DNA from: an uncultured delta proteobacterium
GTDB lineage: Bacteria; Myxococcota_A; Polyangia; Fen-1088
Direction of reading: 5' to 3'
Assembly: GCA_963796685.1 (NCBI GenBank)
Contig: CAWCMR010000025.1
Span: 128,001 to 192,000 of the forward strand
Length of the DNA stretch: 64,000 bases
Position 1 is the first letter of the stretch; each line of letters begins with the position of its first letter. The notes below the pieces were generated by a model. It was not told the DNA's origin. It saw only the letters and a program-made list of their open reading frames with translations, and did no database searches. Below, piece by piece: positions 2,880 to 52,745 of the stretch. The translations under genes were made by a program, and so were the position numbers.

Positions 2880-3049
2880 GTCACTTGTTACACGATACTT
2901 TTCTCTCCCGTGGGGTGAGAAGGGTGTGACGTCTCGAAGACAATTGTGTGAACTGCGAAGGTTCACTCGAACGTAGCGGACTTGTGGCACATGTAACAAA
3001 CGACCGGGTCTAGTTTGCCTCCGTCATTTCGGACCAAAGGAGGCTCATC

Positions 3050-6776: not shown

Positions 6777-6827
6777 TTACGGCTGCGCGCCTCCACCTGG
6801 ACTGCAAATCGGTAGTGTTTCACAAGC

Positions 6828-8633: not shown

Positions 8634-8771
8634 TCGGATTCGTTCGCCGGCCGGCGCGAGCCGCGAAAATCGAAGCGATGCAACACTTCGTCACCAGACT
8701 TTTGCGAATCGGTAACGCTCGTCCCCAACGATTTCGACTAGCTTCAGACGCCGGAAACCCTGAAAATCAAA

Positions 8772-8815
8772 GCGGCCCTGGCGCCTCCTCCGGCCCAGGG
8801 CCGCGTACTTTTTCC
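8772..8815 (+). terminator. Hairpin terminator, copy 2 of the duplicated element
   Basis: GCGGCCCTGG-cgcctcctccggc-CCAGGGCCGC then gtactttttcc; same stem as at 5986. Confidence 0.55.
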
Positions 8816-8877
8816 AGGGCCGGCCACATTCCCGTCGCCGGAACGCCACATTCCGTTCCCGTGAAAGTTGCCTAGCT

Positions 8878-10227
8878 GTGACTTCATCTCGAGCGAGGCT
8901 GGCGTACTCTGCCCGCATGGCAAGCACGGAACCCGTTTCTCTTCGCCGCAGCGGCATGATGATCCCGTCGCTGCGCCGGTCGCAGTCGCAACGAAGGGTG
9001 GTCGTCACCGGTATCGGCATCGTGACCCCTTGGGGCTGCGACGTCGAGGTGTTCTGGAATGGTCTCACGGCCGGTCGCTCCTGCATCTCGCCTATCAGTC
9101 GCCTAGACACCTCGGACTATCCCGTTCACATCGGCGGACAGGTCGCGGAGGTGGCGCCGACGTCGTTCCTGCCGGAGCAGCTCCTTCGCCGCAACGATCT
9201 GTGCACCAACATCGGCCTTTTGGCGGGTGGCTTGGCTCTGGAATCGTCGGGGCTCGGCGCCCTCGCCGACGAGCGGCGCCCCATCTCGGTCATGGTCGGG
9301 TCGGCTTTCGGTGCCTCGCAGGGATTGCAGGATGTCTACGACTCGTACTTTCAGCGCGGCTGGCGCAAAATGCACCCGCTCTCGGTTCCGCGCAACATGT
9401 TCAACTCTCTGTCCAGCAACCTGTCGATTCAGTACAAATTGGGGGGCAGCCATTTCACCGTCGCGGCCGCATGTGCGTCGGGCGCGGTGGCGCTGGGCGA
9501 GGCCTTTCGCCGCATCCGTCACGGCGAGGACGAGATCGTGCTGGCGGGCGGTGCCGACGCTCCCATTTGCGGCAGCGTTCTCGGCGGCTGGTCCAACCTG
9601 CGCGTGCTTTCGCGTAATCCCGATCCCACGCACGCCTGCCGTCCGTTCGATTCCGAGCGCGACGGCTTGGTCATCTCCGAGGCAGCGGCCATGCTGGTTC
9701 TGGAAGATCTCGAGCACGCCCGCCGGCGCGGAGCCCGGTGCTATGGCGAGATTGCTGGGTATGGCGCCACCAGTGACGCCAGTCATCTGACCGCGCCCGA
9801 TGCCACGGGGCAAAGCCAAGCCATCGAACGGGCTCTGTGCTCGGCCGGGCTTGGGCCCGAGGACATCGACTATGTCAACGCGCACGGAACCTCGACCAAG
9901 CTCAACGACGAGGCCGAGACACGTGCCTTGCGCATGGCCCTGGGCGCGCATGCCGAGCGCGTCGCGGTCAGTGCCAACAAGTCCATGCTCGGGCACACCA
10001 TGGGCGCCTCCGGCGCGTTGGAGCTGATCAGCACCCTCCTCACCCTGCGCGATGGCGTGATTCCCCCTACCATCAATTACCAGACCCCCGATCCGTCCTG
10101 CAATCTCGACTACGTTCCCAACACCGCCCGTGCATCCGACGTTCGGGTGGCCATCAAGAGCTCGTTTGCTTTCGGCGGCGACAACGCCGTGCTCGTGGTC
10201 CGACAACCAGAGGAGATGCTGCAATGA
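8878..10227 (+). CDS. fabF: Beta-ketoacyl-ACP synthase II
   Basis: RRVVVTGIG, catalytic AACASG, NAHGTST, KSMLGH, SFAFGG; true start probably downstream (about 8917-8959). Confidence 0.9.
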   Translation: MTSSRARLAYSARMASTEPVSLRRSGMMIPSLRRSQSQRRVVVTGIGIVTPWGCDVEVFWNGLTAGRSCISPISRLDTSDYPVHIGGQVAEVAPTSFLPEQLLRRNDLCTNIGLLAGGLALESSGLGALADERRPISVMVGSAFGASQGLQDVYDSYFQRGWRKMHPLSVPRNMFNSLSSNLSIQYKLGGSHFTVAAACASGAVALGEAFRRIRHGEDEIVLAGGADAPICGSVLGGWSNLRVLSRNPDPTHACRPFDSERDGLVISEAAAMLVLEDLEHARRRGARCYGEIAGYGATSDASHLTAPDATGQSQAIERALCSAGLGPEDIDYVNAHGTSTKLNDEAETRALRMALGAHAERVAVSANKSMLGHTMGASGALELISTLLTLRDGVIPPTINYQTPDPSCNLDYVPNTARASDVRVAIKSSFAFGGDNAVLVVRQPEEMLQ

Positions 10228-13557: not shown

Positions 13558-16053
13558 TCAGCGCGGGCATTCGAGCGGTGTTTCCACGTCGAAGCAGGTC
13601 GGCTCTTCGCCCGAGGCGCGTAGGCCGTTGCTGTACACCGGGATGTGCGGTGTCCTGGGCTGGTCGTCGCTGTTCGCCGGAGGCGCTTGCAGCCCCTGGT
13701 AGCTCCAGTCGTTCGACGGATCCCAGGTGCAGCTCGAGGTGTTGTTGACGCCGATTTCGAGCATGAATTGGCGAGGGCCACCGATGATCGGCATCCGCCC
13801 CCAGAACGCATAACCTTCGAAGCCGATATCGACGTAGTAGGTTGACGGGCTCTGCGGACACGGCTTGGGTTTGCTGATGGTTGTCGGCTCGCCCCACTCG
13901 CTGGCACCGCGATCGTAGATCAGGCTGGCGGTCACGTCGCCTATCGAGCCGCCCTTCTTTTGCAGCTCGCTGATGTCGAAGAAGTACTTGATGCTCAAGT
14001 GCTTGTCGTAGCGTGGGACATGGACGGATTCGTTGATCAAGGTGACGGATACCTGCGAGTGGCAGCTGTTCGTGCTGTTGTAGTTCGAGAGGGTGTAGAA
14101 CTCGTCCCAATCCGGTTCGAGTGGCGGGAAGGTCGCAAGCGGGCACTGACCGCTGCCGTCCAGCTCGTAGAGGGCGGCGAGCGCCGCGATGAGCGAGGCA
14201 TTGTAGTCGATGGTGACCTCGTTGCTGCCGAAGTCGGAGCGCTTGTCGACGTGGTTGTCGCTTTCATCGGGACCGTTGACCAGGGCCCCCCAAATGATGT
14301 GGCGATTCTCCACCGGGTTGTCGGGCTCGCCCCAGATCGAGGCGTGTCCCGCGGCGTGGTGGGGCTGCATGCAATACTTGTCGGTGTAGCCCATCATGTA
14401 GGAGGTCTTGAGCGGGTTGTCGCCGAGGATGTACGCCATTTGCTTCCTGGCCCACGGCTGGATCGCCTTCACGGCAGCGCTGTCATCGGGAAACAGCTTG
14501 GCGTAGAGCAAGGCCACGAACTGTCCCGCCGAATTGTAGCGGGCAGAGCCGTAGGCATTGAGCACGGCGAATCCGCCCGGCGTCGTGGCCACCGTGCCGT
14601 CCGTCCATTTCATGGAATCCTCGCGTGCGATGGTCGCCATGCCCTGAGCCGCCGGATGGCCGAGGTCACGCAGGATTTGCGCCATCTTGAGGAAGACGCC
14701 CGTGCGCGCCGTCTCCCAGTCGTACGTCGCCGATTCGCTCCAGCAACTGGCTCCAGTGCGCTGCAGACAGGTCGTCACGAAGCCGGGGAAGCCATCCAGC
14801 CAGCCGCCGCCGGCGGCGTTCGGCCCCAGGATGTCGTCGAGATACGACTGCTCGCCGGTCGCGAGGTAGAGCCAAACCGCTGCCCAGGCCAATTCGTCGT
14901 AGGCGTAATCGGAATGGTAGAGGCCGACCGCATCGGACCCGACGACGTCGGGGTGCCTTGCGGCGAGCTTGTACAGGGCTTTGGCGTATGCGAGGGACTT
15001 GTCCGCGTAGGCCGCGTCCTTGCCGCTGATCACCAGCGAGGTCAGGGCCAAGGCGGCGGCCGCGCTCGCCGTCTCGTCCGAGGCGGGCTTGTCGTCGGTA
15101 GCGAAGTAACCTTTGCGCGGGCAGAAGTCGATGCGGCGTAGCTCCGGGGGCATCCAGTAGCAAGAATGGTCGGATGCATCGCTGACCTGGTGGGCGAATG
15201 CCACCACGTTGCCGCCGCTGTCGAGGAAGGTCGACTTCATGAAGTAGTCGTCCGCCCAGCGCAGCAGATTGAATGCCTCGTCCTCGAGGCCCGTGGCGCG
15301 GAAGGAATTCGGGAACTCGTACATGCTCCAGGCCAGGGTCGAGGCCGTGAACCCCGTGGTGAGCCCGAATTTGATGAAGTCGCCCGCATCGTGGAAACCG
15401 CCCGACAGGTCGACCTCGCCGGTGTTGTTCGGATCGAGAATGCTCTTGTACTTGGTGATGAAGGCCTGCGACAAATCCACGCCGGTGGCGGCGTTGGGAT
15501 CCAGCTTGATGTGCTGATCCATGACGTGGGCATCGCCTCGCCACTGCACGTAGGTGTTCACGACACCCGGTCCGGATTTGTTCACGTTGAGAAACCACAA
15601 GGCCTTCTGAAAAGCCTCGCCCAGCCCGCCCTCGGTGCCCTGGCAGGTGGGGTTCTGGGGAAAATTGAGCGGCGGAACCGGAGTCGGGCAATTGGTGTCG
15701 GGAATGATGCGCGCATCGGCGACAGTGTCCGGGCCTGCATCTCGACCGGCATCGGGGCCCAGGTTCACATCCGGACCAACCACGGCATCTCGACCGGCAT
15801 CCGGTCCGACAACAAAGACGGTGTCGGGAATCGCTCCGTCGGGAAGAGGCTCCACCACAAATGGTGGAATGTACACCCCACCATCGAGCATGCCCGGTTC
15901 CACCGGCGGCGACGGCCCGACCGGGGGCGGGTCGATGACCACGACCTTGGGCTGTCCCGATTGCAACAATAGGTGCGAGTTGCAACCGAAGGCGCCTACC
16001 GTCAAGGTGGCTACCAAACCGAGGAACACATGGGTGCACGAATGGTGATGCAT
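13558..16053 (-). CDS. GH9 endoglucanase with C-terminal CBM3-like module, lipoprotein
   Basis: DLSGGFHDAGDFIKFG, DELAWAAVWLY, PHHAAGH, NEVTIDYNASL (catalytic residues present); CBM3c-like KYFFDISE...WDPSNDWSY; AFGC lipobox; start at MHHHSC (16053). Confidence 0.9.
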   Translation of the reverse strand: MHHHSCTHVFLGLVATLTVGAFGCNSHLLLQSGQPKVVVIDPPPVGPSPPVEPGMLDGGVYIPPFVVEPLPDGAIPDTVFVVGPDAGRDAVVGPDVNLGPDAGRDAGPDTVADARIIPDTNCPTPVPPLNFPQNPTCQGTEGGLGEAFQKALWFLNVNKSGPGVVNTYVQWRGDAHVMDQHIKLDPNAATGVDLSQAFITKYKSILDPNNTGEVDLSGGFHDAGDFIKFGLTTGFTASTLAWSMYEFPNSFRATGLEDEAFNLLRWADDYFMKSTFLDSGGNVVAFAHQVSDASDHSCYWMPPELRRIDFCPRKGYFATDDKPASDETASAAAALALTSLVISGKDAAYADKSLAYAKALYKLAARHPDVVGSDAVGLYHSDYAYDELAWAAVWLYLATGEQSYLDDILGPNAAGGGWLDGFPGFVTTCLQRTGASCWSESATYDWETARTGVFLKMAQILRDLGHPAAQGMATIAREDSMKWTDGTVATTPGGFAVLNAYGSARYNSAGQFVALLYAKLFPDDSAAVKAIQPWARKQMAYILGDNPLKTSYMMGYTDKYCMQPHHAAGHASIWGEPDNPVENRHIIWGALVNGPDESDNHVDKRSDFGSNEVTIDYNASLIAALAALYELDGSGQCPLATFPPLEPDWDEFYTLSNYNSTNSCHSQVSVTLINESVHVPRYDKHLSIKYFFDISELQKKGGSIGDVTASLIYDRGASEWGEPTTISKPKPCPQSPSTYYVDIGFEGYAFWGRMPIIGGPRQFMLEIGVNNTSSCTWDPSNDWSYQGLQAPPANSDDQPRTPHIPVYSNGLRASGEEPTCFDVETPLECPR

Positions 16054-16206
16054 GGAACTTGTCCGACCGTGAAGGCGCAACATCCGCTCCCGAGAAGCCC
16101 TGGCGGCAGCTGCCGGATGGTACCATATACTATGGTCGCTTCTGAAAGCGCCGCGCTTAGACTCATGGCGTTGCCAGGTGACGGCTCTCACGCCATCTTT
16201 CGGTCG

Positions 16207-16235
16207 TGAGCCAATCCCTGGCCGCCTCGCTACTG
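16207..16235 (+). promoter_or_regulatory. Putative ECF promoter, likely autoregulatory for ECF-1
   Basis: TGAGCC-N17-CTACTG, 33 nt before ATG 16269; the motif recurs at six other sites. Confidence 0.65.
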
Positions 16236-16268
16236 TGTACGCATACGAACCCTTACCCTTGTCGGTCC

Positions 16269-16907
16269 ATGTCAATTCGCCGTTTCCATATACCGCTCTC
16301 GCTCGTGGTCGATCCGGACAATGGGAACGTCAGCGACAGCGACCTTGCGCGGGCGCTCATCGCCGGGGCTGCCTGGGCACACGCCGAAACGTGGAATCGT
16401 TTCGCGCCCATGGTGTTCGGCATGGCGGCCCGTGCCCTGGGTTCGGAATCCGAGGCGGAAGACGTGGTCCAGGAGGTCTTCTACCGCGTGCTCGCGAAAG
16501 CCAAGTCCCTGCGCAATCCCGAGAGCCTGCACAGCTTCATCGTCTCGTTCGCCATCCGCATCCTGAAATGGGAGCTGCGTCGGAAGCGAACGCGAAGTTG
16601 GCTGTCCTTCCGCCAGCCGGAGCTGCTGGCCGATATCGCGTGCGAGACGCTGGACGTCGAGTCGCGCGATCTCCTGCGGAGATTCTATGCGTTTCTGTCT
16701 CGCCAAGCGCCGCGCGAGAGGCTGGTCCTTTCGCTGCGTTACTTGGAATCGATGACGGTCGAGGAGATCGCCAAGGCCATGGAGCTCTCGGTGTCCACGG
16801 TGAAGAGGTCATTGGAATGCGCCAAGAGAAAGTTGTCGCATTGGATCGAGACCGATCTCGAGCTGGTCGGACTTCTCGATGGAAAGCGTGGATTCAATGA
16901 AGACTGA
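16269..16907 (+). CDS. ECF sigma factor (ECF-1)
   Basis: EAEDVVQEVF (region 2) and MTVEEIAKAMELSVSTVKRSL (region 4 HTH). Confidence 0.9.
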   Translation: MSIRRFHIPLSLVVDPDNGNVSDSDLARALIAGAAWAHAETWNRFAPMVFGMAARALGSESEAEDVVQEVFYRVLAKAKSLRNPESLHSFIVSFAIRILKWELRRKRTRSWLSFRQPELLADIACETLDVESRDLLRRFYAFLSRQAPRERLVLSLRYLESMTVEEIAKAMELSVSTVKRSLECAKRKLSHWIETDLELVGLLDGKRGFNED

Positions 16908-18201
16908 TGGTGGTGAACGGACAGATCCTTCTGCGCTCGAGACCCTGACCGCGCTCGCCCGTCACAGCGTGCGTCCTGCCACGCCCGCGCAGCTCAGCCG
17001 GGGCTGGTCCGCGGTCTCGATTCGCCTTGCCGCCCGCAAGGCGCGATGGAAAGGCATGCTTCGTCTGACCTTGGTCGGAGCCACGGCCTCTGCCTTGGCC
17101 TTGGTCGCGCTCGGCATCGTCTCGTGGTCTCGCGCGCATTTGCAGCCCACGGTGCCTGCCCCGCTTGCCTACCAGATCCAGGGTGGCAGCGTCGTAGAAG
17201 GTGGGTACCTTCGGGAATCGGGCAAAGGGGCCGTCAAGCTCGTCTTCGCGGAAGGGACCGAGCTCGTGCTCATGCCGGGAGCGCGCGGGCGGCTACGCTC
17301 GGTCGAGAGCACGGGCGCCCGCATCGCCATCGAACATGGCACGGCGTCCTTCCAGGTCACGCCACGCAGCGATGCCAGGTGGCTGGTCGACGTCGGCCCC
17401 TTCCTGGTCACGGTCAAGGGAACGGTGTTCACGGTTTCCTGGGATGCGGTCAAGGAACGATTCGAGCTCAGGCTGCAGCACGGCCGCGTGTCGGTCACCG
17501 GTCCGATTGCCGGCGGCACGATTCCGCTGCGCGCCGGCCAACGACTGGTCATCAACCTGCCCAAGGAAGAAATCCTCATCACCGAGCAGAAGCCGGAAGA
17601 GGCCTGGCTGGGGATGCCGCCGGGCGGGCCGACCCCCGCGACCGACGTCGCCGCGGAGGATCGTCCGACCGCGGGCCCCGCGGACCAGGGATCCTCGGGG
17701 CCATCCCCATCCGTCGCGGGCAAGACGAATGGTCGGCGCACGTGGGCCGAGGCACTGGCATCGGGTGACTGGGACCGGATTCTCACCGACGTGGACCGCA
17801 TCGGCGTGCAGCGGACGCTGGCCGATGCGTCCAGCGAGGATCTCTTCGCCCTGGCCGATGCCGCCCGATATCGACGCCGCCGCGGCTTGGCGCGCGCGGC
17901 CCTGCTGGCGGAGCGAAAGCGCTTTCCGGAATCGGTCCGCGCCCTCGATGCCGCCTTCCTGCTCGGCCGTTTGGAGGAAGCGAATGAACGAGGCACGAAC
18001 AAGGCCATCGCCTGGTACGACGAGTATCTGGCCCGAGCGCCGAACGGGACGTACGCCTCGGAAGCCCTCGGACGAACGATGACCGCGACCAGCCAGCTGG
18101 AAGGCACCGCGCGGGCGCAGCCCGTCGCCGAGGACTATCTCCGCCGTTTTCCGGATGGTACCTACGCAGGGGCGGCACGAGCGCTGCTTACCGCCCCCTG
18201 A
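16897..18201 (+). CDS. Transmembrane anti-sigma factor with FecR-like and C-terminal TPR-like domains
   Basis: Overlaps the sigma stop; one TM helix; FecR-like IEHGTASFQV...VTVKGTVFTV...LQHGRVSV; TPR-like AAFLLGRL, YLRRFPDGTYA. Confidence 0.85.
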   Translation: MKTDGGERTDPSALETLTALARHSVRPATPAQLSRGWSAVSIRLAARKARWKGMLRLTLVGATASALALVALGIVSWSRAHLQPTVPAPLAYQIQGGSVVEGGYLRESGKGAVKLVFAEGTELVLMPGARGRLRSVESTGARIAIEHGTASFQVTPRSDARWLVDVGPFLVTVKGTVFTVSWDAVKERFELRLQHGRVSVTGPIAGGTIPLRAGQRLVINLPKEEILITEQKPEEAWLGMPPGGPTPATDVAAEDRPTAGPADQGSSGPSPSVAGKTNGRRTWAEALASGDWDRILTDVDRIGVQRTLADASSEDLFALADAARYRRRRGLARAALLAERKRFPESVRALDAAFLLGRLEEANERGTNKAIAWYDEYLARAPNGTYASEALGRTMTATSQLEGTARAQPVAEDYLRRFPDGTYAGAARALLTAP

Positions 18202-18211
18202 TCAGGTCCCC

Positions 18212-19249
18212 GTGGGTCGGTTCACCCTCACCTTGTCTCTTCTCGCGGCCATGCTGTGGGCGACATCCTCGCTCGCGGCAACGGTGGTTCTCGTGCGGCC
18301 CCCCCATCCCACGACGGGCATGACCGAGGCCCTGGTGCGCATCCACGGAGAGCTGGTGTCGGCGGGCTTCGGGGTGGAGAGCGCGGATGGACCGGCCGTG
18401 GAAAGCACGGATGGGGAATCCCGGAGCTGGCTGGAGCAGTTGGCGGCACGCCGTGGCGCCGACGCGGTCATTGCCGTGATGGGAGACAAGTCGCCCGATT
18501 CCGTCGAGGTATGGGTCGTCGATAAGGTGACCGGAAAGTCGGTCGTCCGCCATGTCCCCTTTCGCCCGCTGTCGGCAAAGGGGCCGGAGACCCTGGCCAT
18601 TCAAGCCGTCGAGCTTTTGCGCGCCAGCTTCCTCGAGATCGATCTCACTTCCAATGCCCGACCGAGCGAGGTCAAACCGGCTCCGCCGCCGACGGTGGTT
18701 CACTTCGTGGAGATGGAACAAAGGGCGAAACAGGCGGAGCGTTTTGGCGTCGAAGTGGGTGGGGCTGCGAGCATGAGCTTGGACGGGGTCGGTCCGGCGG
18801 TCATGCCCGTCGTGCGTTTCGCTTGGGCCGCGCGACCATGGTTCATCGCGCACGCGACCGTGGCTGGAATGGGCAGTCGACCCAGCGTCCGAACCTCGGC
18901 GGCGAGCGCCCAGGTCGATCAGGAATTCGCCCTGCTCGGTGCCAGCTACTGCTTCAGGGTCGACACGCGGTTGCGGCCCTTCGTCTCGCTTTCCGCCGGC
19001 GTGCTTCATACCGCGGTGGAGGGCCGCGCCGACTGGCCGTTGCAAGCACAGCATGCGGGACAATGGTCCTTCTTGCTCGACGGGGGAATCGGCGCGGAGG
19101 CGCCGCTGCGAGAGCGTTTCTACCTGTCGCTGGCCGCACGCGCGCAAGTCGCCGACCCCTATCCCGCCGTTCGTCTTGCGGGCGCCGTGGTCGCCACGGC
19201 TGAACGTCCAAGCATCCTTCTGACCCTCTCGCTCGGAGCCTGGCTATGA
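18212..19249 (+). CDS. Exported protein with periplasmic N-domain and probable small (about 8-strand) OM beta-barrel
   Basis: Signal peptide ending SLA; Pro linker; amphipathic strands including LRPFVSLSAG; terminal LSLGAWL beta-signal-like end. Confidence 0.65.
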   Translation: MGRFTLTLSLLAAMLWATSSLAATVVLVRPPHPTTGMTEALVRIHGELVSAGFGVESADGPAVESTDGESRSWLEQLAARRGADAVIAVMGDKSPDSVEVWVVDKVTGKSVVRHVPFRPLSAKGPETLAIQAVELLRASFLEIDLTSNARPSEVKPAPPPTVVHFVEMEQRAKQAERFGVEVGGAASMSLDGVGPAVMPVVRFAWAARPWFIAHATVAGMGSRPSVRTSAASAQVDQEFALLGASYCFRVDTRLRPFVSLSAGVLHTAVEGRADWPLQAQHAGQWSFLLDGGIGAEAPLRERFYLSLAARAQVADPYPAVRLAGAVVATAERPSILLTLSLGAWL

Positions 19250-20181
19250 ACCTACATCGATACTGCTTCACCTTCCTCTGGCTGGCGATCGGCTGCACAC
19301 GCGGCACGCTGGATGCCGTGTTGCCTGGGCCCGCAACGGACGGCGGCGGCAATGCCGGCGGCAACGAGGCCGGCATCGGCAGCGTGACCTGCCCGTCGCC
19401 CGCGCTCAAAGCGGGCGACACCAACCAGACGGTCCAGGTGGGCGCCACGACCCGCAGCTATGTCTTGCACATTCCCGCGACGTACGACAACAGCAAGCCA
19501 GCTCCCCTGATCCTCGATTTCCATGCCCAGAATGGCTCGGGGCCGAGCGAGCTGTCGCTGTCGCCCTATCCCGCGCAAACCGATCCGGAGGGCGTCGTCA
19601 TGGCCTTTCCGACCGGCCTCAAAGGACCGGGGGGCGCCGCCTGGAACGTGGGACCGTGTTGCGTGGCCGGGGTCGACGATGTGGCGTTTGCCAGGGCGCT
19701 CGTGGCGCAGGTACAGGCCGCCGCCTGCATCGACCCCAAGCGCGTCTACGCCGTGGGCCTGGCCACGGGGGGGGGCATGGCCTACTACCTCGCGTGCCAC
19801 ACGGCCGATATGGTCGCGGCGGTGGCGCCGGCCGCGTTCGACTTGCTGGAAGAGAACGTCGGCGATTGCAAGCCATCGCGCCCCGTCACGGTGATCTCGT
19901 TTCGTGGCACCGCCGATACGTTGGTGCCCTACGTCGGCGGGTACTCCACGGTGGTGCCGGGCATGCCGGTCACCTTTCTCGGCGCGCAGGCGACCTTCCA
20001 GAAGTGGGCAGAGCTCGACCAGTGTACGGACTCGCCATCGCTGACGGACAGCAGCGGCTGCTCGACCTATTCCGCGTGCCAGGGCGGCGTCGAGGTGGTG
20101 CTGTGCACGAAGCAGGGCGGTGGACTGGAAGCCGGCAATCCCAGCGTCGCGTGGCCGGTGCTCAGGCGCCACACGCTGTGA
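19246..20181 (+). CDS. LpqC/PHB-depolymerase-type esterase-fold lipoprotein, predicted catalytically inactive
   Basis: AIGC lipobox; colinear with the 33103 paralog but GLATG replaces GYSLG and KQGGGL replaces KQGGGH; ATGA-coupled to the barrel gene. Confidence 0.8.
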   Translation: MNLHRYCFTFLWLAIGCTRGTLDAVLPGPATDGGGNAGGNEAGIGSVTCPSPALKAGDTNQTVQVGATTRSYVLHIPATYDNSKPAPLILDFHAQNGSGPSELSLSPYPAQTDPEGVVMAFPTGLKGPGGAAWNVGPCCVAGVDDVAFARALVAQVQAAACIDPKRVYAVGLATGGGMAYYLACHTADMVAAVAPAAFDLLEENVGDCKPSRPVTVISFRGTADTLVPYVGGYSTVVPGMPVTFLGAQATFQKWAELDQCTDSPSLTDSSGCSTYSACQGGVEVVLCTKQGGGLEAGNPSVAWPVLRRHTL

Positions 20182-20354
20182 ACCGACAAACGCTCTTGCC
20201 GACGGTGTAGACACCGCCCCCCCGTCGCGTGTCGCTAGGATCTGCCTACTGGGGCCCTCCCCCCTAATCCCGCGACAAGCGCAGTGACGTCGCGGAAGGC
20301 AGCAGAAAGAGACGCCATTCCACGATAGAGGCTCGCACCCAATCGGAGCGGCGA

Positions 20355-20477
20355 GTGGTGGTCGTAGACGTCGTCGTGGATGTTCCCGTGGCCGTGGCCG
20401 TGGCCGACGAAGATCGCTCCGGCCACGGCCACGACCAGGACCACGACCACGACCTCCCGCGGCTATCGCGGGATTAC
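20355..20477. repeat. GTGGCC/CCACGA-rich REP-like element, copy 1
   Basis: Hexamer runs GTGGCC opposed by GGCCAC/CCACGA (hairpin-capable); ends gacctcccgcggctatcgcgggatta. Confidence 0.5.
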
Positions 20478-21515
20478 GGTCGCCGCGTCTGGCTTTCGTG
20501 CCACGTGGGACCGATCGCCCGACCATGGACCCGGGACGGCCGTGGTGGCGTCCCAGGGCAGAAAACCATCGACATTGAAGCCTCCCGGGCTCACGCCAAA
20601 GTGCTTCCGGAAGGCTTTGCGGAAGGCGTGCGTGGTACTGAAGCCACATTGGCGCGCCAGATCCTTGGCCGTGAATCCATCATCTCGGATCAGGTGCGCG
20701 GCGTGCTCCAGTCGAACGAGTCTGAGATATCGACCGGGAGAGATCCCCCAGATCTTCTCGAACAGACGGGTGAAGTGGAATCTGCTCATTTTCGCAACGC
20801 GCGCCAGGTCTGCGACACCCACAGGACGTGAATAGTTCCGCCGGCAAAACTCTTCGACCTCGAGGACGAAGGCGGGCACGGCCGGCAAGCGGCACTCGGA
20901 TAACTGCGCCGGCCGGCAACATTCGCCAAGCAACGCCATCAAGATTGCGTGGGCAGCCGATGAGCCCTGGGACGGCGACCCTATCCTCTGCTCCAGAGCA
21001 TCGGCGCACGCCCCGGCGACGCGCGCAAGTGTTGGCGAATTGGCGGCCAAGGTTACGACCGGGCCAACACTGTCCGCAACCTCGCGAATGCAACGAATCA
21101 CTTCACGACCGGCCAAGGTGACATAGAAGGATTCCCACCGTTCGCCGGCCTGGAGCCAATAGTGGTGTTCATAAGGATAGGATAGCAGGAGCGCCTGGCC
21201 CGGCCCGACGACGATTTGCCGATCGTAGTAGCGAAGCCGGGCGCGTCCGCTCAGGGTGTACCGGATGGCAGCCAACCCTCGGTTGCTGGGATTGCTCCCG
21301 TTTCCATTGTAGCTCGGGCCGCGCTGCAATTGGAAACCGGCGCTGTGGACTTGCGCCGGCATTGGACCCAGCAAGTCCGGAAACACCACCGATTCGCGAT
21401 GCCCCAACTCGAGCAGTCGGGCAATGCCGGGAACATCCTTCAGCGCCTTCCGGGTCACGTCGGCACGTCGCCGCGCCGGCGTCCCAGACCTGACCTCGTC
21501 GAAGCCCCGGACCAA
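20463..21515 (-). CDS. AraC-family transcriptional regulator
   Basis: Cupin-like YTLSGRA...GPGQALL; double HTH VADLARVAKMSRFHFTRLF...CGFSTTHAFRKAFRKHFGVSP. Confidence 0.9.
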   Translation of the reverse strand: MVRGFDEVRSGTPARRRADVTRKALKDVPGIARLLELGHRESVVFPDLLGPMPAQVHSAGFQLQRGPSYNGNGSNPSNRGLAAIRYTLSGRARLRYYDRQIVVGPGQALLLSYPYEHHYWLQAGERWESFYVTLAGREVIRCIREVADSVGPVVTLAANSPTLARVAGACADALEQRIGSPSQGSSAAHAILMALLGECCRPAQLSECRLPAVPAFVLEVEEFCRRNYSRPVGVADLARVAKMSRFHFTRLFEKIWGISPGRYLRLVRLEHAAHLIRDDGFTAKDLARQCGFSTTHAFRKAFRKHFGVSPGGFNVDGFLPWDATTAVPGPWSGDRSHVARKPDAATVIPR

Positions 21516-25657: not shown

Positions 25658-27022
25658 TTGACGATGCATCTTCGATCAAGTTTGGTTCTTGGCATTGTGA
25701 CGGGAGTCGGTACCGTATTCGCATATGGTTGTTCGCCGTCGGGAGGGACCATGAGCGGCAGCGGAGGAAGCACGGCTTCGAGCAGCGGCGGGCAAGTTGG
25801 AACGGGTGGCGCATCGGAAAGCGGCGGCCAAGTCGGTACGGGTGGCGCGTCGGGAACCGGTGGCGCGTCGGGAACCGGTGGCAAGGTCGGGAGCGGTGGC
25901 GCGACGGGTACCGACAGCACGACGACAGGGAGCGGTGGGGCTACAGTCAGCGGCGGCAATACCGGCTCTGGAGGGGCTGCCGGCGGCGCGACGGGCATGG
26001 GCGGAACCGTGAGCAGGGACGGGGCCGTAGATGGCGCCGGCAAACGTGACGGCGGCGGCATGCGTGATTCCGGTCCAGCCACCACGGGCGGTGGGACTGG
26101 GACCGGCGGCTCGACCGGCGCAGGCGGCACATCTGGCCCCGGCGGCTCGACGGGCGCACCCGGAACGATCAGAAAGTACTTCGGCAACATCGATACCTCA
26201 GGTTCCATCCGCTCGGATTTCAAGTCCATGTGGGATCAGTTCAGTCCCGAGAACGCCGGGAAATGGGGCTCGGTGCAGGGCAGCTCTGCAAGCACCTTCA
26301 ATTGGTCTACGCTGGACGCCATGTACAAGTACACCCAGGACAACAATATCCTCTTCAAGGAGCACTGTTTCTTTTGGGCTGCTCAGCAACCGAGCATGGC
26401 GACCAACAGCAATATCGAGACCGTCGGCAAGGCGTGGATGAAGGCCTTCTGCGATCGCTACCCCAAGACCGCGATGATTGACGTCTTCAACGAGTCGCTG
26501 CACAACTCGCCGGCGTACAAGACCGGCATGGGCGGCACCGGCACCACAGGCTACGACTGGCTCATCAATGCCTTCACATGGGCGAGGGAGGCGTGTCCAA
26601 ACGCCATCTTGCTCTATAATGATTACAACACCATCGAGTACTCCAACGAAAACAGCGGCGTCATCAAGCTGGTGAAAGCCATCAAGGCCGCCGGCGCCCC
26701 CATCGACGGGGTCGGCTGCCAAGGCCACGATGTCGGCAAGGTCTCGGCGAGCACGGTGACGACTTACGTCAACAATATCATTAGCCAAACGGGCGTGCCC
26801 GTCTACATCACGGAGATGGACGTCGGGGAAGCCGACGACAACACGCAGATGACGAAGATCAAGGATGTCGTCACGCCGCTTTGGGCCAACGATCAGGTGA
26901 AGGGCATTACCTACTGGGGCTATATCGTCGGCCGGACGTGGAGAGACAATACCGGGCTCATGACGGACAGCGGCACGAAGCGCGCGGCGCTGACCTGGCT
27001 GCTGGGCTTCCTCGGCCGATGA
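25658..27022 (+). CDS. GH10 endo-1,4-beta-xylanase, lipoprotein with Gly-rich linker
   Basis: AYGC lipobox; PENAGKW, DVFNES (acid/base), YNDYN, GCQGH, YITEMD (nucleophile). Confidence 0.9.
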   Translation: MTMHLRSSLVLGIVTGVGTVFAYGCSPSGGTMSGSGGSTASSSGGQVGTGGASESGGQVGTGGASGTGGASGTGGKVGSGGATGTDSTTTGSGGATVSGGNTGSGGAAGGATGMGGTVSRDGAVDGAGKRDGGGMRDSGPATTGGGTGTGGSTGAGGTSGPGGSTGAPGTIRKYFGNIDTSGSIRSDFKSMWDQFSPENAGKWGSVQGSSASTFNWSTLDAMYKYTQDNNILFKEHCFFWAAQQPSMATNSNIETVGKAWMKAFCDRYPKTAMIDVFNESLHNSPAYKTGMGGTGTTGYDWLINAFTWAREACPNAILLYNDYNTIEYSNENSGVIKLVKAIKAAGAPIDGVGCQGHDVGKVSASTVTTYVNNIISQTGVPVYITEMDVGEADDNTQMTKIKDVVTPLWANDQVKGITYWGYIVGRTWRDNTGLMTDSGTKRAALTWLLGFLGR

Positions 27023-27048
27023 GCCGTTCCGTGGGACGTTGGGAACTG
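27020..27048 (+). promoter_or_regulatory. Putative ECF promoter, likely autoregulatory for ECF-3
   Basis: TGAGCC-N17-GAACTG, 29 nt before ATG 27078; overlaps the GH10 stop codon. Confidence 0.65.
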
Positions 27049-27077
27049 CAGTCCTAAGGAGCTAGACTGGACTATCA

Positions 27078-27716
27078 ATGGGCCCCCGCAGTTCCCATGT
27101 AAAGCTGGCGCTCGTGGGCCCGCCCGCACGCGAGCACCTGAGCGACGCCGAATTGGCGCGTGCTCTGATATCCGGTGCGGCGTGGGCCTATGCGGAAACC
27201 TGGAACCGCTTTTCTCCCGTCGTCTTCAACATGGCGATCAGCGCGCTGGGATCGCCATCGGAGGCTGAAGACATCGTCCAGGAGGTCTTTTGCCGTTTGG
27301 TCGGAAAGGCCAAGACCCTTCGCCAGCCGGAATGCCTCCGCAGTTTCATCGTCTCTTTCGCCATTCGCGTCCTAAAATGGGATCTGCGCCGCAGACGCGT
27401 GCACGGCTGGCTGACCTTCGAACCTGGGGAGGCGCTGATAGACGTGGTCCGAGTCTCCCTCGACGTCGAATCTCGTGACATACTCCGGCGTTTCTATGCA
27501 CTCTTGTCCCGGCTTGGCGCACGCGAGCGCCTGGCGTACGCGTTGAGGCACATCGAATCGATGACCATCGAGGAGACGGCGCAGGCCATGGACCTGTCGG
27601 TGTCGACGGTGAAGAGGCTGCATGAGCGAGCGACGGACCAGCTATCCAAGTGGAGCGAAACGGATTTCGAGCTGACCGGGCTTCTCCTGAGAAAGCGTGG
27701 GTGGCATGAGACCTGA
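27078..27716 (+). CDS. ECF sigma factor (ECF-3), paralog of ECF-1
   Basis: SDAELARALI, EAEDIVQEVF, SFIVSFAIR, LSVSTVKRL. Confidence 0.9.
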   Translation: MGPRSSHVKLALVGPPAREHLSDAELARALISGAAWAYAETWNRFSPVVFNMAISALGSPSEAEDIVQEVFCRLVGKAKTLRQPECLRSFIVSFAIRVLKWDLRRRRVHGWLTFEPGEALIDVVRVSLDVESRDILRRFYALLSRLGARERLAYALRHIESMTIEETAQAMDLSVSTVKRLHERATDQLSKWSETDFELTGLLLRKRGWHET

Positions 27717-29043
27717 TGTCGGTGGAACGCCCGATCCCTCTCCACTCGCCATCCTGACCGAGTTGGCCCGCGATGCGCGCAATCAGCTTCCCCGCCCCAC
27801 GCCCGAAGAACTGGGAGACAAGTGGGAGTTGGTCTCGACGCGTATTGCTGCGCAGAAGGCTCGTCGCAGGATCCTCATTCGACTTTCGATGGCTGGTGCG
27901 CTGGCCACCGCAGCAATAGCGGCATGGGTACTTCCGCGGCCGGGTCGACTGTCAGTGCCTGCCACGGCGCCGGCGGCCCTCAGCTATCGAATTGAAGGCG
28001 GAAACGTCGTAGACGGCGGCTACCTGCGCGAGTCCGGCTCCGACACGGTCAGGATGCGATTTACCGAGGGTACGGAATTCGTGCTCAGCCCGGGAACCCG
28101 GGCACGCCTGCGATCGGTCTCGAGCTCGGGCGCGCGCATCGCCATCGAACATGGCACCGCATCCTTCCAGGTCACACCGCGCAGCGAGGCGCTGTGGCAA
28201 GTCGACGTCGGGCCATTCCTTGTCACGGTGAAGGGAACCATGTTCACGGTTTCCTGGGATGCGGTCGGCGAACGATTCGATCTAAGACTCCGGCATGGCG
28301 AGGTGTCGGTGACCGGACCGGTTTCCACGGGAGCAATCTCCGTGAAAGCGAATCAGCGATTGGTCATCGATCTGCCCAAGAAGGAAACCGTGATCACGGA
28401 GGAAGACGATGGAGAGAGCTCTGCCGGGATCGGCTCCCCGCGGTCAGAGAGCACGGACCAGGTCAAAAGCCCCGCCTCCGAGCGCCCCTCGCCGTTGGTA
28501 GCCCGACCGACTGGCCAAAATCCCGCGTTGTCGACCGAACGGAGGACTGCCAAGTCTGGCGCGGGCCGAGGTTGGGGCGAAGCCGTGGCGGCAGGACAAT
28601 GGGATCGCGTCCTCACCGAGGTCGATCGCGCCGGCGTGAAGCAAACCCTGGCGCACGCCTCCAGTGAGGACCTTCTGGCGCTGGCCGACGCGGCCCGCTA
28701 TCGGCGACGAACGGGGCTGGCGCGTGCGGCGCTGCTGGCCGAACGCGATCGCTTCCCCGGATCCCCCTCGGCCCTGGACGCCGCGTTCCTCCTCGGCCGC
28801 CTCGAAGAATCGCGACACGGCGAGCGGCAAGAGGAGATGGTCGAGGCGATTCGGTGGTACGATACATACCTTTCGGGAGCGCCTTCAGGCACCTACGCTT
28901 CCGAGGCGCTGGGACGGAAGATCATTGCGACGAAAGGCCTCCGCGGGGCCGCCGCGGCCGAATCTCTGGCCAGGGAATACCTGCGACGTTTCCCTGGCGG
29001 CCCCTATGCCGGCGCCGCGCGCGAGCTGCTGCTTCATCCGTGA
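27697..29043 (+). CDS. FecR-like/TPR transmembrane anti-sigma factor, paralog of 16897
   Basis: Shared blocks GGYLRESG, GARIAIEHGTASFQVTPRS, ASSEDLxALADAARYRRR, ALDAAFLLGRLEE. Confidence 0.85.
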   Translation: MGGMRPDVGGTPDPSPLAILTELARDARNQLPRPTPEELGDKWELVSTRIAAQKARRRILIRLSMAGALATAAIAAWVLPRPGRLSVPATAPAALSYRIEGGNVVDGGYLRESGSDTVRMRFTEGTEFVLSPGTRARLRSVSSSGARIAIEHGTASFQVTPRSEALWQVDVGPFLVTVKGTMFTVSWDAVGERFDLRLRHGEVSVTGPVSTGAISVKANQRLVIDLPKKETVITEEDDGESSAGIGSPRSESTDQVKSPASERPSPLVARPTGQNPALSTERRTAKSGAGRGWGEAVAAGQWDRVLTEVDRAGVKQTLAHASSEDLLALADAARYRRRTGLARAALLAERDRFPGSPSALDAAFLLGRLEESRHGERQEEMVEAIRWYDTYLSGAPSGTYASEALGRKIIATKGLRGAAAAESLAREYLRRFPGGPYAGAARELLLHP

Positions 29044-29053
29044 ACGATCCGCC

Positions 29054-30082
29054 GTGCGTCGGCTGGCAATCGACGTCGTCCTGCTGACGGTGCTTCTCTG
29101 GGCTGTGGATGCTTCGGCAGCCAGCGTGATGCTCGTGCGGCCGCCGAATCCGTCCGCCCCCATGGCCGAAGCCATCGTGCGCGTGCGCGGCGAGCTCATA
29201 TCCGAGGGCTTCCAGGTGGATGTCATGGACGGACTCAAGGGCGCGGAATCGCGCGCTTGGCTCGAGCAGCTGGCGGAAGCCCACAAAGCAGATGCGGTCG
29301 TCGCCGTCCTCGGCGATGAAACACCGGACTCGGTCGAGGTTTGGGTGATCGACAAGGTAACCGAAAAGACGGTCGTCCGACGAATACCCTTCAAGCCGCA
29401 ATCCGACCACGCAGCCAAGACCTTCGCCATTCACACGCTCAAGCTTCTCCGCGCCAGCTTTCTGGAAATCGACCTCCGGCTCGGTGGCCGGCCTAGCGAA
29501 GCCAGGTCGGTCCCTCCGGAGGTGGAACACTTTGTCGATGGCGAAAACCCACCCCATCGGGAGGGACGCTTCGGCGTCGAGCTCGGTGGCGCGGCGGTCA
29601 TCGGCCTTGGCGACATCGGGCCGGCGCTCCTCCCCGTCATGCGCCTGGGCTGGGCCATCCGGCCATCGCTGGTCGCCCAGGTGACGGTGGGGGGGTACGG
29701 GTCGCGTCCCAGCGTCCAAACCGACGTGGGCAGCGCCCAGGTCGCCCAAGAATTTGCCGTGCTCGGGGCACGCTACCGATTTCTTCCCGGTCGTCGCGTA
29801 CGCCCCACCCTCTCTCTTTCGGCGGGGGTGCTTCACTCCCGCGTCGAGGCCCAGGCCCCGGCCGATTCGCCCTACCAAAGCCGAGATGCGGCCTTGTGGT
29901 CGTTTCTGCTCGATGGCGGTGCCGGCATTGGGGTCGCACTTGCCGAACGGTTCGAGATAACATTGGCGGCCCATGCACAAATCGCGAACCCATATCCCGC
30001 CATCCGCTTCGACAGATCGGTCGTGGCCACGTCCACCCGTCCCAGTCTTCTTTTCATCCTGACGATTGGGGCTTGGCGATGA
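29054..30082 (+). CDS. Periplasmic N-domain + small OM beta-barrel protein, paralog of 18212
   Basis: GTG start; signal peptide; PDSVEVWVxDKVT, LLRASFLEIDL, WSFLLDGG; ends LTIGAWR. Confidence 0.7.
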   Translation: MRRLAIDVVLLTVLLWAVDASAASVMLVRPPNPSAPMAEAIVRVRGELISEGFQVDVMDGLKGAESRAWLEQLAEAHKADAVVAVLGDETPDSVEVWVIDKVTEKTVVRRIPFKPQSDHAAKTFAIHTLKLLRASFLEIDLRLGGRPSEARSVPPEVEHFVDGENPPHREGRFGVELGGAAVIGLGDIGPALLPVMRLGWAIRPSLVAQVTVGGYGSRPSVQTDVGSAQVAQEFAVLGARYRFLPGRRVRPTLSLSAGVLHSRVEAQAPADSPYQSRDAALWSFLLDGGAGIGVALAERFEITLAAHAQIANPYPAIRFDRSVVATSTRPSLLFILTIGAWR

Positions 30083-31591
30083 AGCGCGTATTGCCAACGG
30101 GCGCGATCCTCATCACCTTGGTGGGTTGTTCGCGTGGCAATCTCGACGTGATCGAACGGCTGCCATCTTCGGACGGCGGCGGCAGCATCGAGTATGACGG
30201 CGCCGCGTCGGCGCTGGACTCGGCCATAGACGCGGGCTCACCGCCCAGTCTCGAAGACTTGCAGCGAGCGTACGTCGACCTGCGGTTTGGAATGCTCCTC
30301 CATTTCGGAATCCTCACCTACACGGGCAATTGGGCGGATGCCAACCTCCCCATTGACCAGTTCAATCCCACCAAGCTCGACGCCACCCAGTGGGCCGATG
30401 CCGCAGTAGCCGCGAACATGAAGTACGCCATCCTGAGCGTCCGCCACATCGATGGATTCGCGCTCTGGAACACGGCAACCACCAACTTCGACGTGGGCGC
30501 CATCAGCTGGAGAAACGGCAAGGGAGACGTGGTACGTGAATTCGTCGATGCCTTCCGCTCCCGCGGGCTCAAGGTCGGATTCTTGTACCCCATGTGGGAC
30601 GCCACCCAAGGACTGGGCAACAGCGGCGTGGGCAACACCACCATCACGCGTCCCCAGATTGAATACCTGAAGGCTCAGCTCACGGAATTGTTGTCGAACT
30701 ACGGCACGATCTCGTTTCTCCATTTCACGGCCTGGGCCTGGCAGATGGGCCACAATGCCGTGCCCTACCAAGAAATTCGGGAGCTCGTGAAGTCCCTGCA
30801 GCCAACCTGTCTCATTTTCGACCAGACACAACTGATGAACCTGTGGGATGTGGACGCGACGGTCTACGAAGAATCATGGGGCATTACCCCATCCGCCGAC
30901 AACACATTGCCCTCGACCGAGATGCAGAAGATCAACAGCAGCGGCGGAAACAACTGGTTTTGGGCTCCGGACATCGGCGGGCTGATGACCGCGACCGATA
31001 TTGCCCAGAACCTGCAGACGCTCGAAGGGCGTTGGACGAATTTTCTGCTGAACGTTCCGCCCAACCGCGATGGCCTCCTGGACCCCTCGATGGTCGCCAT
31101 CCTGGCCCAGGTCGGCTCGCTGTGGAATCCCGACCTCTCGCGCAAACCCTTGCCGGCGCAAGGCCCACAGAATGAGTACCCATACACACCGGTAAGCGCC
31201 AGCGCCACGAGCGGCAATGCAGCCAACGCGATCGACGGCGTCGACACCTACAACGGCTATTCGGTCTGGCAGTCGTCGGGCCCCCTGCCGCAGTCGATCA
31301 CCCTCGACCTAGGCGTCGAGCGCCCGGATGTTGGAACCCTCACCTACGTGCCACTCTACGCCGGTAGGGAATCCCCCAGTACCGACGGCGCGATCACCTC
31401 CTATGCCATTCTCACCAGCGGAAACGACAACAACTTCACGGTGGCGACGACCGGAACCTGGCCGTCGAGCACGGCGATGAAGACCGCCGTCTTTGGCCCC
31501 GTGGCGGCCCGCTACGTTCGGCTGGAGGCACGGGCAGCCACTGGGAATAACGCAGACTGCCACCGAGATCACCGTAGGCGCTCGACGCTGA
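30079..31591 (+). CDS. GH29 fucosidase-fold lipoprotein with F5/8 (CBM32-like) domain, predicted inactive; +1 frameshift near 31555 in the last codons
   Basis: LVGC lipobox; LRFGMLLHFG, FNPTKLDATQW, QLTELLSNYG, LLNVPPNRDGLL; HFTAW where W(F/L)DG is expected; SITLDLG...ARYVRL. Confidence 0.8.
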
Positions 31592-31637
31592 CTCGACGCC
31601 TCGACGCACCAGACAATGACCTGGCGCCGTTCCACGT

Positions 31638-31670
31638 TTTCCCGAGGCTTTCCCGAGGCTTTCCCGAGGA
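31638..31670 (+). repeat. Three direct 11-bp repeats just upstream of an ECF promoter
   Basis: tttcccgaggc tttcccgaggc tttcccgagga. Confidence 0.85.
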
Positions 31671-31673
31671 TCC

Positions 31674-31702
31674 TGAGCCGAAATGGCCGTCAGCCGGAAC
31701 TG
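31674..31702 (+). promoter_or_regulatory. Putative ECF promoter (GAACTG class)
   Basis: TGAGCC-N17-GAACTG. Confidence 0.65.
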
Positions 31703-31729
31703 TTACGCCGAGGAGTTTATCTTTCGCTC

Positions 31730-34461: not shown

Positions 34462-34476
34462 GCGCGAACGACAGCC

Positions 34477-35802: not shown

Positions 35803-35840
35803 GATGGCCTTTCCTGTATTCGGCTCCGATCAGCCTCAGA

Positions 35841-52709: not shown

Positions 52710-52745
52710 AAGGGGGGTGAGTTTTTGCCCGAATGGAGGTGCCTC

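Follow-up and report, generated by a model that had tools for sequence, protein, structure and literature searches.

What does a gene do for its host when it encodes an esterase that lacks the residues needed to cut? This question is raised by the open reading frame (ORF) at 19246-20181 in a 64,000-nucleotide stretch of DNA from an uncultured delta proteobacterium of the Polyangia (contig CAWCMR010000025.1, positions 128,001 to 192,000; hereafter the window, to which coordinates refer unless a locus is named). The predicted product has the alpha/beta-hydrolase fold of CE1/polyhydroxybutyrate (PHB)-depolymerase-type esterases but neither the catalytic Ser nor the catalytic His, and its gene closes a four-gene cassette (cassette A) that also encodes a sigma factor of the extracytoplasmic function (ECF) type, an anti-sigma factor and a small outer-membrane barrel protein. 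We propose, with a probability of about 55%, that this dead esterase is an enzyme-derived, non-cutting sensor that would serve a trans-envelope ECF pathway and switch on active esterases.

The ORF is intact (311 amino acids, ATG start, TGA stop), and its GC content by codon position (0.64/0.55/0.86) marks the plus frame as coding; the antisense ORF 19252-20649 is the usual shadow in high-GC DNA. BLASTP against the translation of a Ser-Asp-His paralog encoded on the opposite strand of the window (33103-34461) returned 152 identities over 264 positions (58%; E = 7e-107), with the motifs aligned as VGLATGGGM/VGYSLGGGM, GTADT/GTADT and KQGGGLEAG/KQGGGHDPG (dead esterase/paralog). Ala173 thus occupies the nucleophile position and Leu294 the position of the catalytic His, and Asp224, the acid of the former triad, is retained. 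In these respects the codons and the alignment bear out the original prediction, which was made from the sequence alone and had named the same comparator. That prediction had also listed a change of an HG motif to HA. H93-A94 (DFHAQN) does lie opposite DFHGLG of the paralog, but 54 of the 74 distinct relatives with an intact triad read HP at this place and only 19 read HG. The argument is therefore weak, and we rejected HA as a sign of a lost oxyanion hole.

Since the Ala/Leu pair recurs in five independent genome loci (L001 to L004 and L014) and in 35 of 127 distinct family sequences without the His, a sequencing error is unlikely. Immediately behind the codons for Ala173 and Thr174 comes a run of nine G residues (19767-19775, plus strand), the source of the GGG in the motif. 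Indel errors are likely at such a place, but the frame across it is intact. With Ser and His gone, a Ser-His-Asp mechanism is impossible for this protein. Its N-terminus, MNLHRYCFTFLWLAIG-C, ends in the lipobox LAIGC, a putative lipoprotein signal. Cys17 is conserved in at least 90% of 121 family sequences and ten cysteines are invariant across these 121 members, so that the conservation of cysteines and lipobox, likewise claimed before, stands. By sequence, the dead esterase would be an outer-membrane-anchored lipoprotein.

An AlphaFold2 model built from 121 sequences reached a predicted local distance difference test score (pLDDT) of 88.9 and a predicted template modelling score of 0.84. Residues 1 to 46 were disordered in this model, with pLDDT below 50 for residues 13 to 43, and residues 18 to 46 probably form a tether. 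The best Foldseek match of the model was acetyl xylan esterase B of Aspergillus oryzae (9j07; E = 2e-17, template modelling (TM) score 0.69/0.71), followed by the PHB depolymerases 9byu and 8daj and the feruloyl esterase 8jh8, all between E = 2e-17 and 1e-13. By sequence (phmmer), the closest solved proteins were again 9j07 (E = 1e-23), 8jh8 (E = 6e-16) and the PHB-depolymerase-family esterase 8daj, with E values ranging up to 6e-7. The dead esterase thus shares fold and sequence with these CE1/PHB-depolymerase esterases and differs from them in the absent Ser and His of the triad and in hidden Markov model scores below curated cut-offs (NF050058, 115.7 against 150; TIGR01840, 34.5 against 107.85; PF10503, 17.7 against 23). 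These scores say little, because the intact paralog also falls below the cut-offs (134.8, 55.3 and 19.1, respectively). Modelled structure and sequence together place the dead esterase near the PHB-depolymerase/CE1-type family as a protein with the esterase fold.

The comparison drew on 1,986 homologs, the best 120 of which were examined for the residues at the two catalytic positions, and on genome loci. Confirmation succeeded for 138 of 155 candidate loci, the 80 best of these were retained, and synteny was checked in species-representative genomes. Loci and protein matches together gave a pool of 201 distinct sequences, 74 with Ser and His and 127 without the His. All 74 intact relatives have Ser at the nucleophile position and His at the catalytic position. 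Among the 127 His-less sequences, position 294 is Q in 47, L in 37, E in 26, D in 7, T in 4, M in 2, S in 2, V in 1 and N in 1, and position 173 is A in 42, S in 38, L in 30, G in 13 and Y in 4. Asp224 is kept in 114 of the 127, and position 174 is Thr in 83 of them versus Met in 72 of the 74 intact sequences.

A maximum-likelihood tree of 82 rows (the 80 loci, the query and the paralog), computed with the catalytic columns removed and left unrooted, contains a single branch that parts 38 His-less from 44 intact rows, the paralog of the window lying on the intact side. This branch received an ultrafast bootstrap of 99 and an SH-like approximate likelihood ratio of 95, and it was present in 100% of 200 bootstrap trees. 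On a FastTree phylogeny of 187 rows, the presence of His required one change, that of Ser seven, the residue at position 173 nine and that at position 294 seventeen. The His-less clade thus has a single origin. The codons (CAY, CAG, CTG) and the 47 sequences with Gln would make a His to Gln to Leu order of events plausible, but the tree does not resolve how the three His-less subclades branch and therefore does not show it.

Elsewhere the protein is under constraint. Nei-Gojobori (NG86) ratios of nonsynonymous to synonymous substitution rates (dN/dS) were 0.13 to 0.26 for the 15 pairs among six genes of the Ala/Leu type, and for pairs with dS between 0.1 and 1.2 the median was 0.223 among His-less sequences (248 pairs) versus 0.222 among intact ones (668 pairs). 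Just nine positions set the two groups apart. Positions 173 and 294 rank 34th and 28th in variability among the 265 positions in the His-less group, and both are invariant in the intact group. These ratios argue for an esterase-fold protein without Ser and His that is maintained by selection and not decaying. Homology to active enzymes, replaced catalytic residues and purifying selection together make the dead esterase, by sequence, a pseudoenzyme. Of the earlier suggestion of "selection for binding rather than decay", the absence of decay is thus borne out, and binding stays an inference.

The genomic context, overlooked in the original prediction, points to a more specific role. Cassette A is encoded entirely on the plus strand in the order ECF sigma factor, FecR-tetratricopeptide repeat (TPR) anti-sigma factor, OmpA-like barrel protein and dead esterase (Table 1). 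The sigma factor scored above the cut-offs of Pfam Sigma70_r2, Sigma70_r4 and Sigma70_ECF, and its homologs align from residue 15 to 26 onward. In the anti-sigma factor, an N-terminal cytoplasmic part is followed by one hydrophobic segment (read by eye), a periplasmic FecR domain (25.8 bits, cut-off 24) and a C-terminal TPR-like region (TPR_16 at 20.5 bits, below the cut-off of 32.7). KGTVF in the FecR domain may include a Gly-Thr self-cleavage site. The TGA of the barrel gene overlaps the ATG of the dead-esterase gene (ATGA), and the dead esterase is the fourth, translationally coupled gene of the operon. Because the gene sits in a sigma/anti-sigma/barrel operon, its likely role shifts from the generic binder first envisaged to a signalling component.

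The barrel protein is predicted to consist of a signal peptide, an alpha/beta periplasmic domain, a disordered linker and an eight-stranded OmpA/OmpX-like barrel ending in LTLxxGAWL. Its AlphaFold2 model, from an alignment of 33 sequences, had a pLDDT of 76.6 overall and of 80 to 94 in the barrel. Foldseek matched the barrel to OmpA, OmpX, NspA and OmpW (E = 1e-8 to 1e-5, target TM-score 0.66 to 0.71) and the N-terminal domain weakly to TolB (probability 0.66 to 0.75). A Pfam scan of the protein returned no match. Neither of two further routes put a name to it: a profile against PDB sequences gave only a chance-level match (E = 0.12), and in a protein atlas all matching clusters were from Myxococcota and labelled 'hypothetical protein', with OMP_b-brl (0.90), TolB_N (0.87) and LpoB (0.86) as the closest families that have a name, which are leads only. 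At E ≤ 1e-3 the profile itself collected 2,153 cluster representatives, a number that fell to 361 at E ≤ 1e-30; most are stand-alone proteins of about 330 to 360 amino acids. A search for fusions of the sensor module among longer proteins gave four matches, with no fusion and none informative, which is weak evidence. No TonB-dependent outer-membrane transducer is encoded in the cassette, its outer-membrane protein being the eight-stranded barrel.

Linkage was assessed by tblastn, with the four proteins of the window as queries and the 80 loci (37 His-less, 43 intact-triad) as targets. Of the His-less loci, 34 have the cassette directly upstream; 28 of these contain all of it, and in the other 6, with less than 2.2 kb of upstream sequence, the contig ends within it. 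Two others, L040 and L057, have at most 21 bp of upstream sequence each, and the last, L026, is considered below. None of the 43 intact-triad loci carries the cassette, and 40 of them have at least 1.2 kb of upstream sequence. His-less esterases are thus strictly linked to the cassette, and soil myxobacteria keep the dead esterase as the final member of a sigma-factor operon of four genes. The original prediction had asked whether orthologs in the cassette keep the triad; none of the 34 cassette-linked homologs keeps the His.

A second cassette in the same window (cassette B) has the same chassis, its sigma factor, anti-sigma factor and barrel protein being 63, 58 and 55% identical to those of cassette A, but a different fourth gene, encoding a GH29-like lipoprotein with an F5/8 type C domain. 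A review places the nucleophile of GH29 enzymes, a conserved Asp, where beta-4 ends (PMC10154630). In our own reading of the alignment, Thr217 of the cassette B lipoprotein would stand in that column (LHFTA versus VWFDG/TWWDG in GH29 proteins of the PDB). Among 121 GH29-like family rows (the query and 120 matches), this column is Asp in 97, Thr in 23 and Ala in 1, and the Thr-type rows are also replaced at positions that are invariant in the Asp group (H124I, Y169L, H251Q and D292N). Compared with orthologs of about 503 amino acids, the cassette B gene departs after '...TGNNA' (about 31540-31600) and reads on to 31947, giving 622 amino acids. The expected ending, '...TATEITVGARR*', is found in the +1 frame, which indicates a 1-nucleotide frameshift near the 3' end, close to 31552, that may be genuine or stem from the assembly.

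A motif directly after the lipobox cysteine, C-[ST]-R-x-[ND]-L-[DY]-x-[IV], is common to the two dead families; it reads C-T-R-G-T-L-D in the dead esterase and C-S-R-G-N-L-D in the cassette B lipoprotein. Counted with the regular expression C.R..[LVM][DYTFVSA], it is present in 115 of the 125 His-less esterase rows that could be evaluated, with near variants in the remaining 10, versus 0 of 73 intact ones, and in 19 of 24 dead GH29-like rows, 4 of the other 5 being near variants, versus 0 of 87 Asp-type GH29 rows. The active relatives have Gly/Ser-rich linkers in its place. Because the motif is shared with an unrelated dead lipoprotein and absent from the active relatives of both, it points to docking on the common chassis.

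The operon is probably autoregulated. A conserved ECF-type motif, TGA[AG]CC-N19/20-ACTG, lies 52 to 66 nucleotides before the sigma start in 23 of 30 windows (one mismatch allowed in the first hexamer) versus 70 of 3,000 random ones (2.3%). The strict motif occurs three times in the 64-kb window against 0.11 expected from shuffles, and two of these copies precede the two sigma genes. A scan of 16000-20600 for sigma-70 promoters and terminators gave nothing above shuffled expectation. The third copy precedes a gene for a lipoprotein with a Gly/Ser linker and a C-terminal SGNH/GDSL-like domain (Lipase_GDSL_2 at 24.7 bits, below the cut-off of 32.9), which makes that gene a candidate member of the regulon. 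The signal peptide of this protein resembles that of the intact esterase encoded downstream of the dead gene in L001.

An intact Ser-Asp-His paralog, 53 to 57% identical to the query, is encoded directly downstream of the dead gene in three loci (L001, 8988-10391; L003, 8992-10374; L005, 9042-10430), and in L003 and L005 the cassette promoter motif precedes this esterase lipoprotein gene. Of ten motif sites beyond the regions upstream of sigma genes, nine precede genes for Gly/Ser-linker lipoproteins. By Pfam, these candidate targets match Esterase_PHB in L003 and L005 (above the cut-off only in L005) and GDSL in L039 and the window; those in L076 and L038 have weak alpha/beta-hydrolase matches, and those in L063, L052 and L079 have no Pfam match. 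In the stretch 20179-20210 (plus strand), the stop codon of the dead esterase itself forms part of TGAACC, a match to the promoter's -35 element. It has neither a fitting -10 element nor an esterase gene downstream, where an AraC-family gene lies on the opposite strand, and it may be a remnant of a lost arrangement like that of L003 and L005, in which a complete motif occupies the corresponding place before the intact esterase gene.

From these observations we infer ligand binding, the protein contacts, the direction of signalling and the regulon. The dead esterase would bind an ester-bearing polymer or oligomer without cleaving it, while the conserved N-terminal C-[ST]-R-x-[ND]-L-D peptide and the flexible tether would hold it to the barrel, to the TPR domain or to both. 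Occupancy would be passed through the periplasmic domain of the barrel protein to the FecR-type anti-sigma factor, which would let go of the sigma factor, and the latter would then transcribe the operon to which it belongs as well as genes close by that encode active esterase lipoproteins. A wider version of this proposal, which we advance tentatively and at something short of even odds, is that Polyangia possess a modular trans-envelope family in which one unvarying chassis, made up of an ECF sigma factor, a FecR-TPR anti-sigma factor and a small OmpA-like barrel that bears a periplasmic domain, carries interchangeable lipoprotein heads derived from dead carbohydrate-active enzymes (CAZymes). 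Each head, docked by C-[ST]-R-x-[ND]-L-D, would be a substrate-specific sensor for the matching active enzymes. The hundreds of barrel-family clusters suggest that there are more heads than the CE1-like and GH29-like ones.

Several points weigh against the sensor reading. L026 (3714-4562) is an orphan His-less gene (Ser/Asp/Gln) that carries the motif C-S-R-A-A-L-D and has no sigma, FecR or barrel gene in its 3.7 kb of upstream sequence. The tree carries no inferred root, and 'loss' is an assumption: Ser-Asp-His was taken as the ancestral state since the remote relatives of solved structure are active enzymes. The 38 His-less sequences that keep Ser leave residual chemistry possible in some members. 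The ligand may be any of several, the fold relatives acting on acetyl xylan, feruloyl esters and PHB, and since the GH29-like head is also replaced at pocket residues, a dead head need not bind the ancestral substrate. The putative regulon is drawn from a sequence motif only, and its Pfam matches are mostly below threshold, with none for three of nine targets.

In addition, genes co-transcribed with a sigma/anti-sigma pair can be outputs and not inputs, and this leads to the main rival explanation. The dead esterase would then be a non-catalytic lipoprotein that binds glycans at the surface or acts as a scaffold, comparable to the binding proteins of polysaccharide-utilisation systems. An active sigma factor would lead to its production along with the barrel, and it would help to hold substrate at the cell surface without signalling. 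Its position behind the sigma/anti-sigma pair fits, as do a fold and pocket residues conserved apart from Ser and His and a neighbourhood rich in GH9, GH10, polysaccharide lyase and esterases. We nevertheless consider this unlikely, given linkage to the regulatory cassette rather than to enzyme genes in 34 of 35 evaluable loci, an N-terminal motif common to the unrelated GH29-like lipoprotein and absent from 73 and 87 active relatives, and a translational coupling to the barrel gene that is alike in both cassettes. A ligand-independent accessory role seems less probable still. In that case, the protein would serve the barrel or the anti-sigma factor as a structural partner, for instance as a plug, as an aid to assembly or, in the manner of RseB, as a protector of the anti-sigma factor, with the esterase fold as a mere scaffold and the signal sensed elsewhere, for example by the TPR domain. 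Freely varying former catalytic positions, a GH29-like counterpart without several pocket residues and an N-terminal motif suggestive of protein-protein contact would all suit such a partner. However, across its full 265 residues the domain is under purifying selection of the same strength as the active enzymes, Asp224, His93 and ten cysteines are kept, and the swapping of heads of different CAZyme origin on one chassis is better explained by ligand specificity.

That the protein is still an enzyme, acting through other residues such as Thr174 beside Ala173 or a water activated by Asp224, strikes us as very improbable. The retention of Asp224, the Thr at position 174 that sets most His-less sequences apart from the intact ones and the Ser kept in 38 of 127 could be cited in favour, but His at the base position is found in 0 of 127, positions 173 (A/S/L/G/Y) and 294 (Q/L/E/D/T/M) take many chemically unrelated residues, and no alternative nucleophile is conserved across the clade. 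A decaying pseudogene or an assembly or sequencing artefact is hardly credible: the G run adjoins the Ala codon and the cassette B lipoprotein gene has a 3' frameshift, but the dead-esterase ORF is unbroken, its replacements recur in 5 independent genomes and in dozens of metagenome proteins, and dN/dS is about 0.2.

The sensor reading has precedents for its parts. RcsF of enterobacteria, which works with OmpA, OmpC and OmpF, is a sensor lipoprotein with a disordered N-terminal linker that cooperates with an outer-membrane barrel; unlike the dead esterase, it is a small protein that does not derive from an enzyme and acts on a phosphorelay, and the barrels with which it works are general porins whose genes are not next to its own. 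The closest functional precedent is RsgI6 of Clostridium thermocellum, whose GH10 module has very low activity, keeps binding, serves an anti-sigma factor and resembles an enzyme of its own regulon (PMC4711584). SigI6/RsgI6 and the other RsgI biomass sensors resemble our cassette in that an alternative sigma factor for plant-cell-wall enzymes is held by an anti-sigma factor with a CAZyme-derived sensing part (PMC4711584, PMC6852018). In RsgI, however, the sensor is fused to the anti-sigma factor in a Gram-positive cell, whereas here it is a separate lipoprotein gene in a diderm, with an outer-membrane barrel between; in addition, the sigma factor of the cassette is of ECF type, its anti-sigma factor is FecR plus TPR, and the catalytic residues are lost outright.

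FecI/FecR/FecA and the Bacteroides ECF-sigma/anti-sigma/SusC-like systems share with the cassette an ECF sigma factor, an inner-membrane FecR anti-sigma factor and an outer-membrane component with a periplasmic domain, all encoded together (PMC2729926, PMC10766802). The cassette differs in having no TonB-dependent transducer but an eight-stranded OmpA-like barrel plus a lipoprotein, and in the TPR region added to its anti-sigma factor. Group ECF267 comes closest in its sigma/anti-sigma pair: the available part of its description reports, for Sorangium and Chondromyces, an anti-sigma factor of FecR-like type fused to TPR at position +1, no FecA-like receptor, kinases nearby and promoter motifs that are 'not conserved' (PMC7826278). 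Compared by description only, the pair of the cassette fits this group in Polyangia-type myxobacteria; the same part of the text names kinases and no barrel or lipoprotein, whereas the cassette has a conserved promoter motif and no kinase. Locus L014 also contains distant sigma plus FecR-TPR pairs (2334-4297 and 6403-9273, about 31% identical), followed by a PP2C-like/sensor protein and Ser/Thr kinases. These pairs have no barrel or lipoprotein at that place and resemble the published ECF267 description. PbpP/SigP of Bacillus thuringiensis and RsiV/SigV are ECF pathways activated when an enzyme-family protein or the anti-sigma factor binds a ligand (PMC8092216, PMC4183432); their folds, ligands and envelope differ from those of the cassette, and neither system includes a barrel or lipoprotein.

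Among CC-licensed PMC papers and bioRxiv preprints we found no description of the cassette or of a dead-esterase sensor, and the words 'lipoprotein' and 'inactive' are absent from a 2024 review of hemicellulase regulation. Enzyme-derived sensors and ECF signalling across the envelope are both known; the architecture of the cassette, which would combine them, is modular and widespread in Polyangia.

Sorangium and its relatives are cellulolytic and hemicellulolytic myxobacteria with 70 to 80 ECF sigma factors per genome. To our knowledge, how such myxobacteria choose their polymer-degrading enzymes is largely unexplained, and we know of no signal assigned to ECF267-type sigma/FecR-TPR pairs. The dead esterase offers a testable input device: a dead enzyme folded like those that it would govern and, as proposed, linked by way of an outer-membrane barrel to a sigma factor. 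If the sensor reading is true, this is a clear bacterial conversion of an enzyme into a sensor, made only once and then long kept, in which the catalytic positions drifted under a constraint on the remaining protein, and the GH29-like lipoprotein is a second, independent example on the same chassis. The promoter motif and the modularity of head and chassis could then serve regulon prediction in uncultured Polyangia and the design of polymer-responsive switches.

Table 1. Coordinates of the two cassettes, the residues of interest and the comparator gene in the window
Feature	Position	Strand	Remark
ECF-type promoter motif TGAGCC-N19-ACTG	16207-16235	+	34 nucleotides upstream of the inferred sigma start
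ECF sigma gene, cassette A	16269-16907	+	Start Met22 of ORF 16206-16907, inferred from homolog alignment
Anti-sigma gene, cassette A	16879-18201	+	Overlaps the sigma gene
Exported barrel protein, no named family, 364 amino acids	18155-19249	+	True start probably GTG near 18209-18215
Dead-esterase lipoprotein gene	19246-20181	+	CE1/PHB-depolymerase-type alpha/beta-hydrolase fold (predicted), no catalytic Ser/His
Lipobox LAIGC, Cys17	19294-19296	+	N-terminus MNLHRYCFTFLWLAIG-C
Cys17 and motif C-T-R-G-T-L-D, dead esterase	19294-19314	+	Cassette-specific motif
Ala173 (GCC), nucleophile position of G-x-S-x-G (here G-L-A-T-G)	19762-19764	+	Alignment, codons
Asp224 (GAT), acid of the former triad, in GTADT	19915-19917	+	Retained; alignment, codons
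Leu294 (CTG), catalytic His position	20125-20127	+	GGGH in intact relatives; alignment, codons
Cassette B chassis	27020-30082	+	Promoter motif 27020-27048, sigma 27078-27716, FecR+TPR 27697-29043, barrel 29054-30082
GH29-like + F5/8 type C lipoprotein, fourth gene of cassette B	30079-31947	+	ATGA overlap with the barrel gene
Intact Ser-Asp-His paralog, lipoprotein with Gly/Ser-rich linker	33103-34461	-	Comparator; intact-triad side of the tree
Third promoter-motif copy	45586-45614	+	39 nucleotides before lipoprotein gene 45653-46780

The window as a whole is a plant-polymer region, with GH9+CBM3, polysaccharide lyase, GH10, GH2, a GDSL esterase, several esterases, araA/araB/araD and a LacI-family regulator. 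Further esterase-type lipoproteins are encoded at 34477-35802 (minus strand; GFSMGG...DGGHG), 35841-36863 (minus) and 52644-53996 (plus), and those at 33103-36863 and 52644-53996 mostly have long Gly/Ser/Thr-rich linkers. The genes at 57214-62180 (minus) encode a class II aldolase/AraD-like protein, AraA, an FGGY kinase and the LacI-family regulator, an L-arabinose catabolism set consistent with a region of hemicellulose utilisation. A gene for a Cys-rich repeat protein of 593 amino acids (47989-49770, minus) adjoins a DDE transposase gene (49843-51159, minus).

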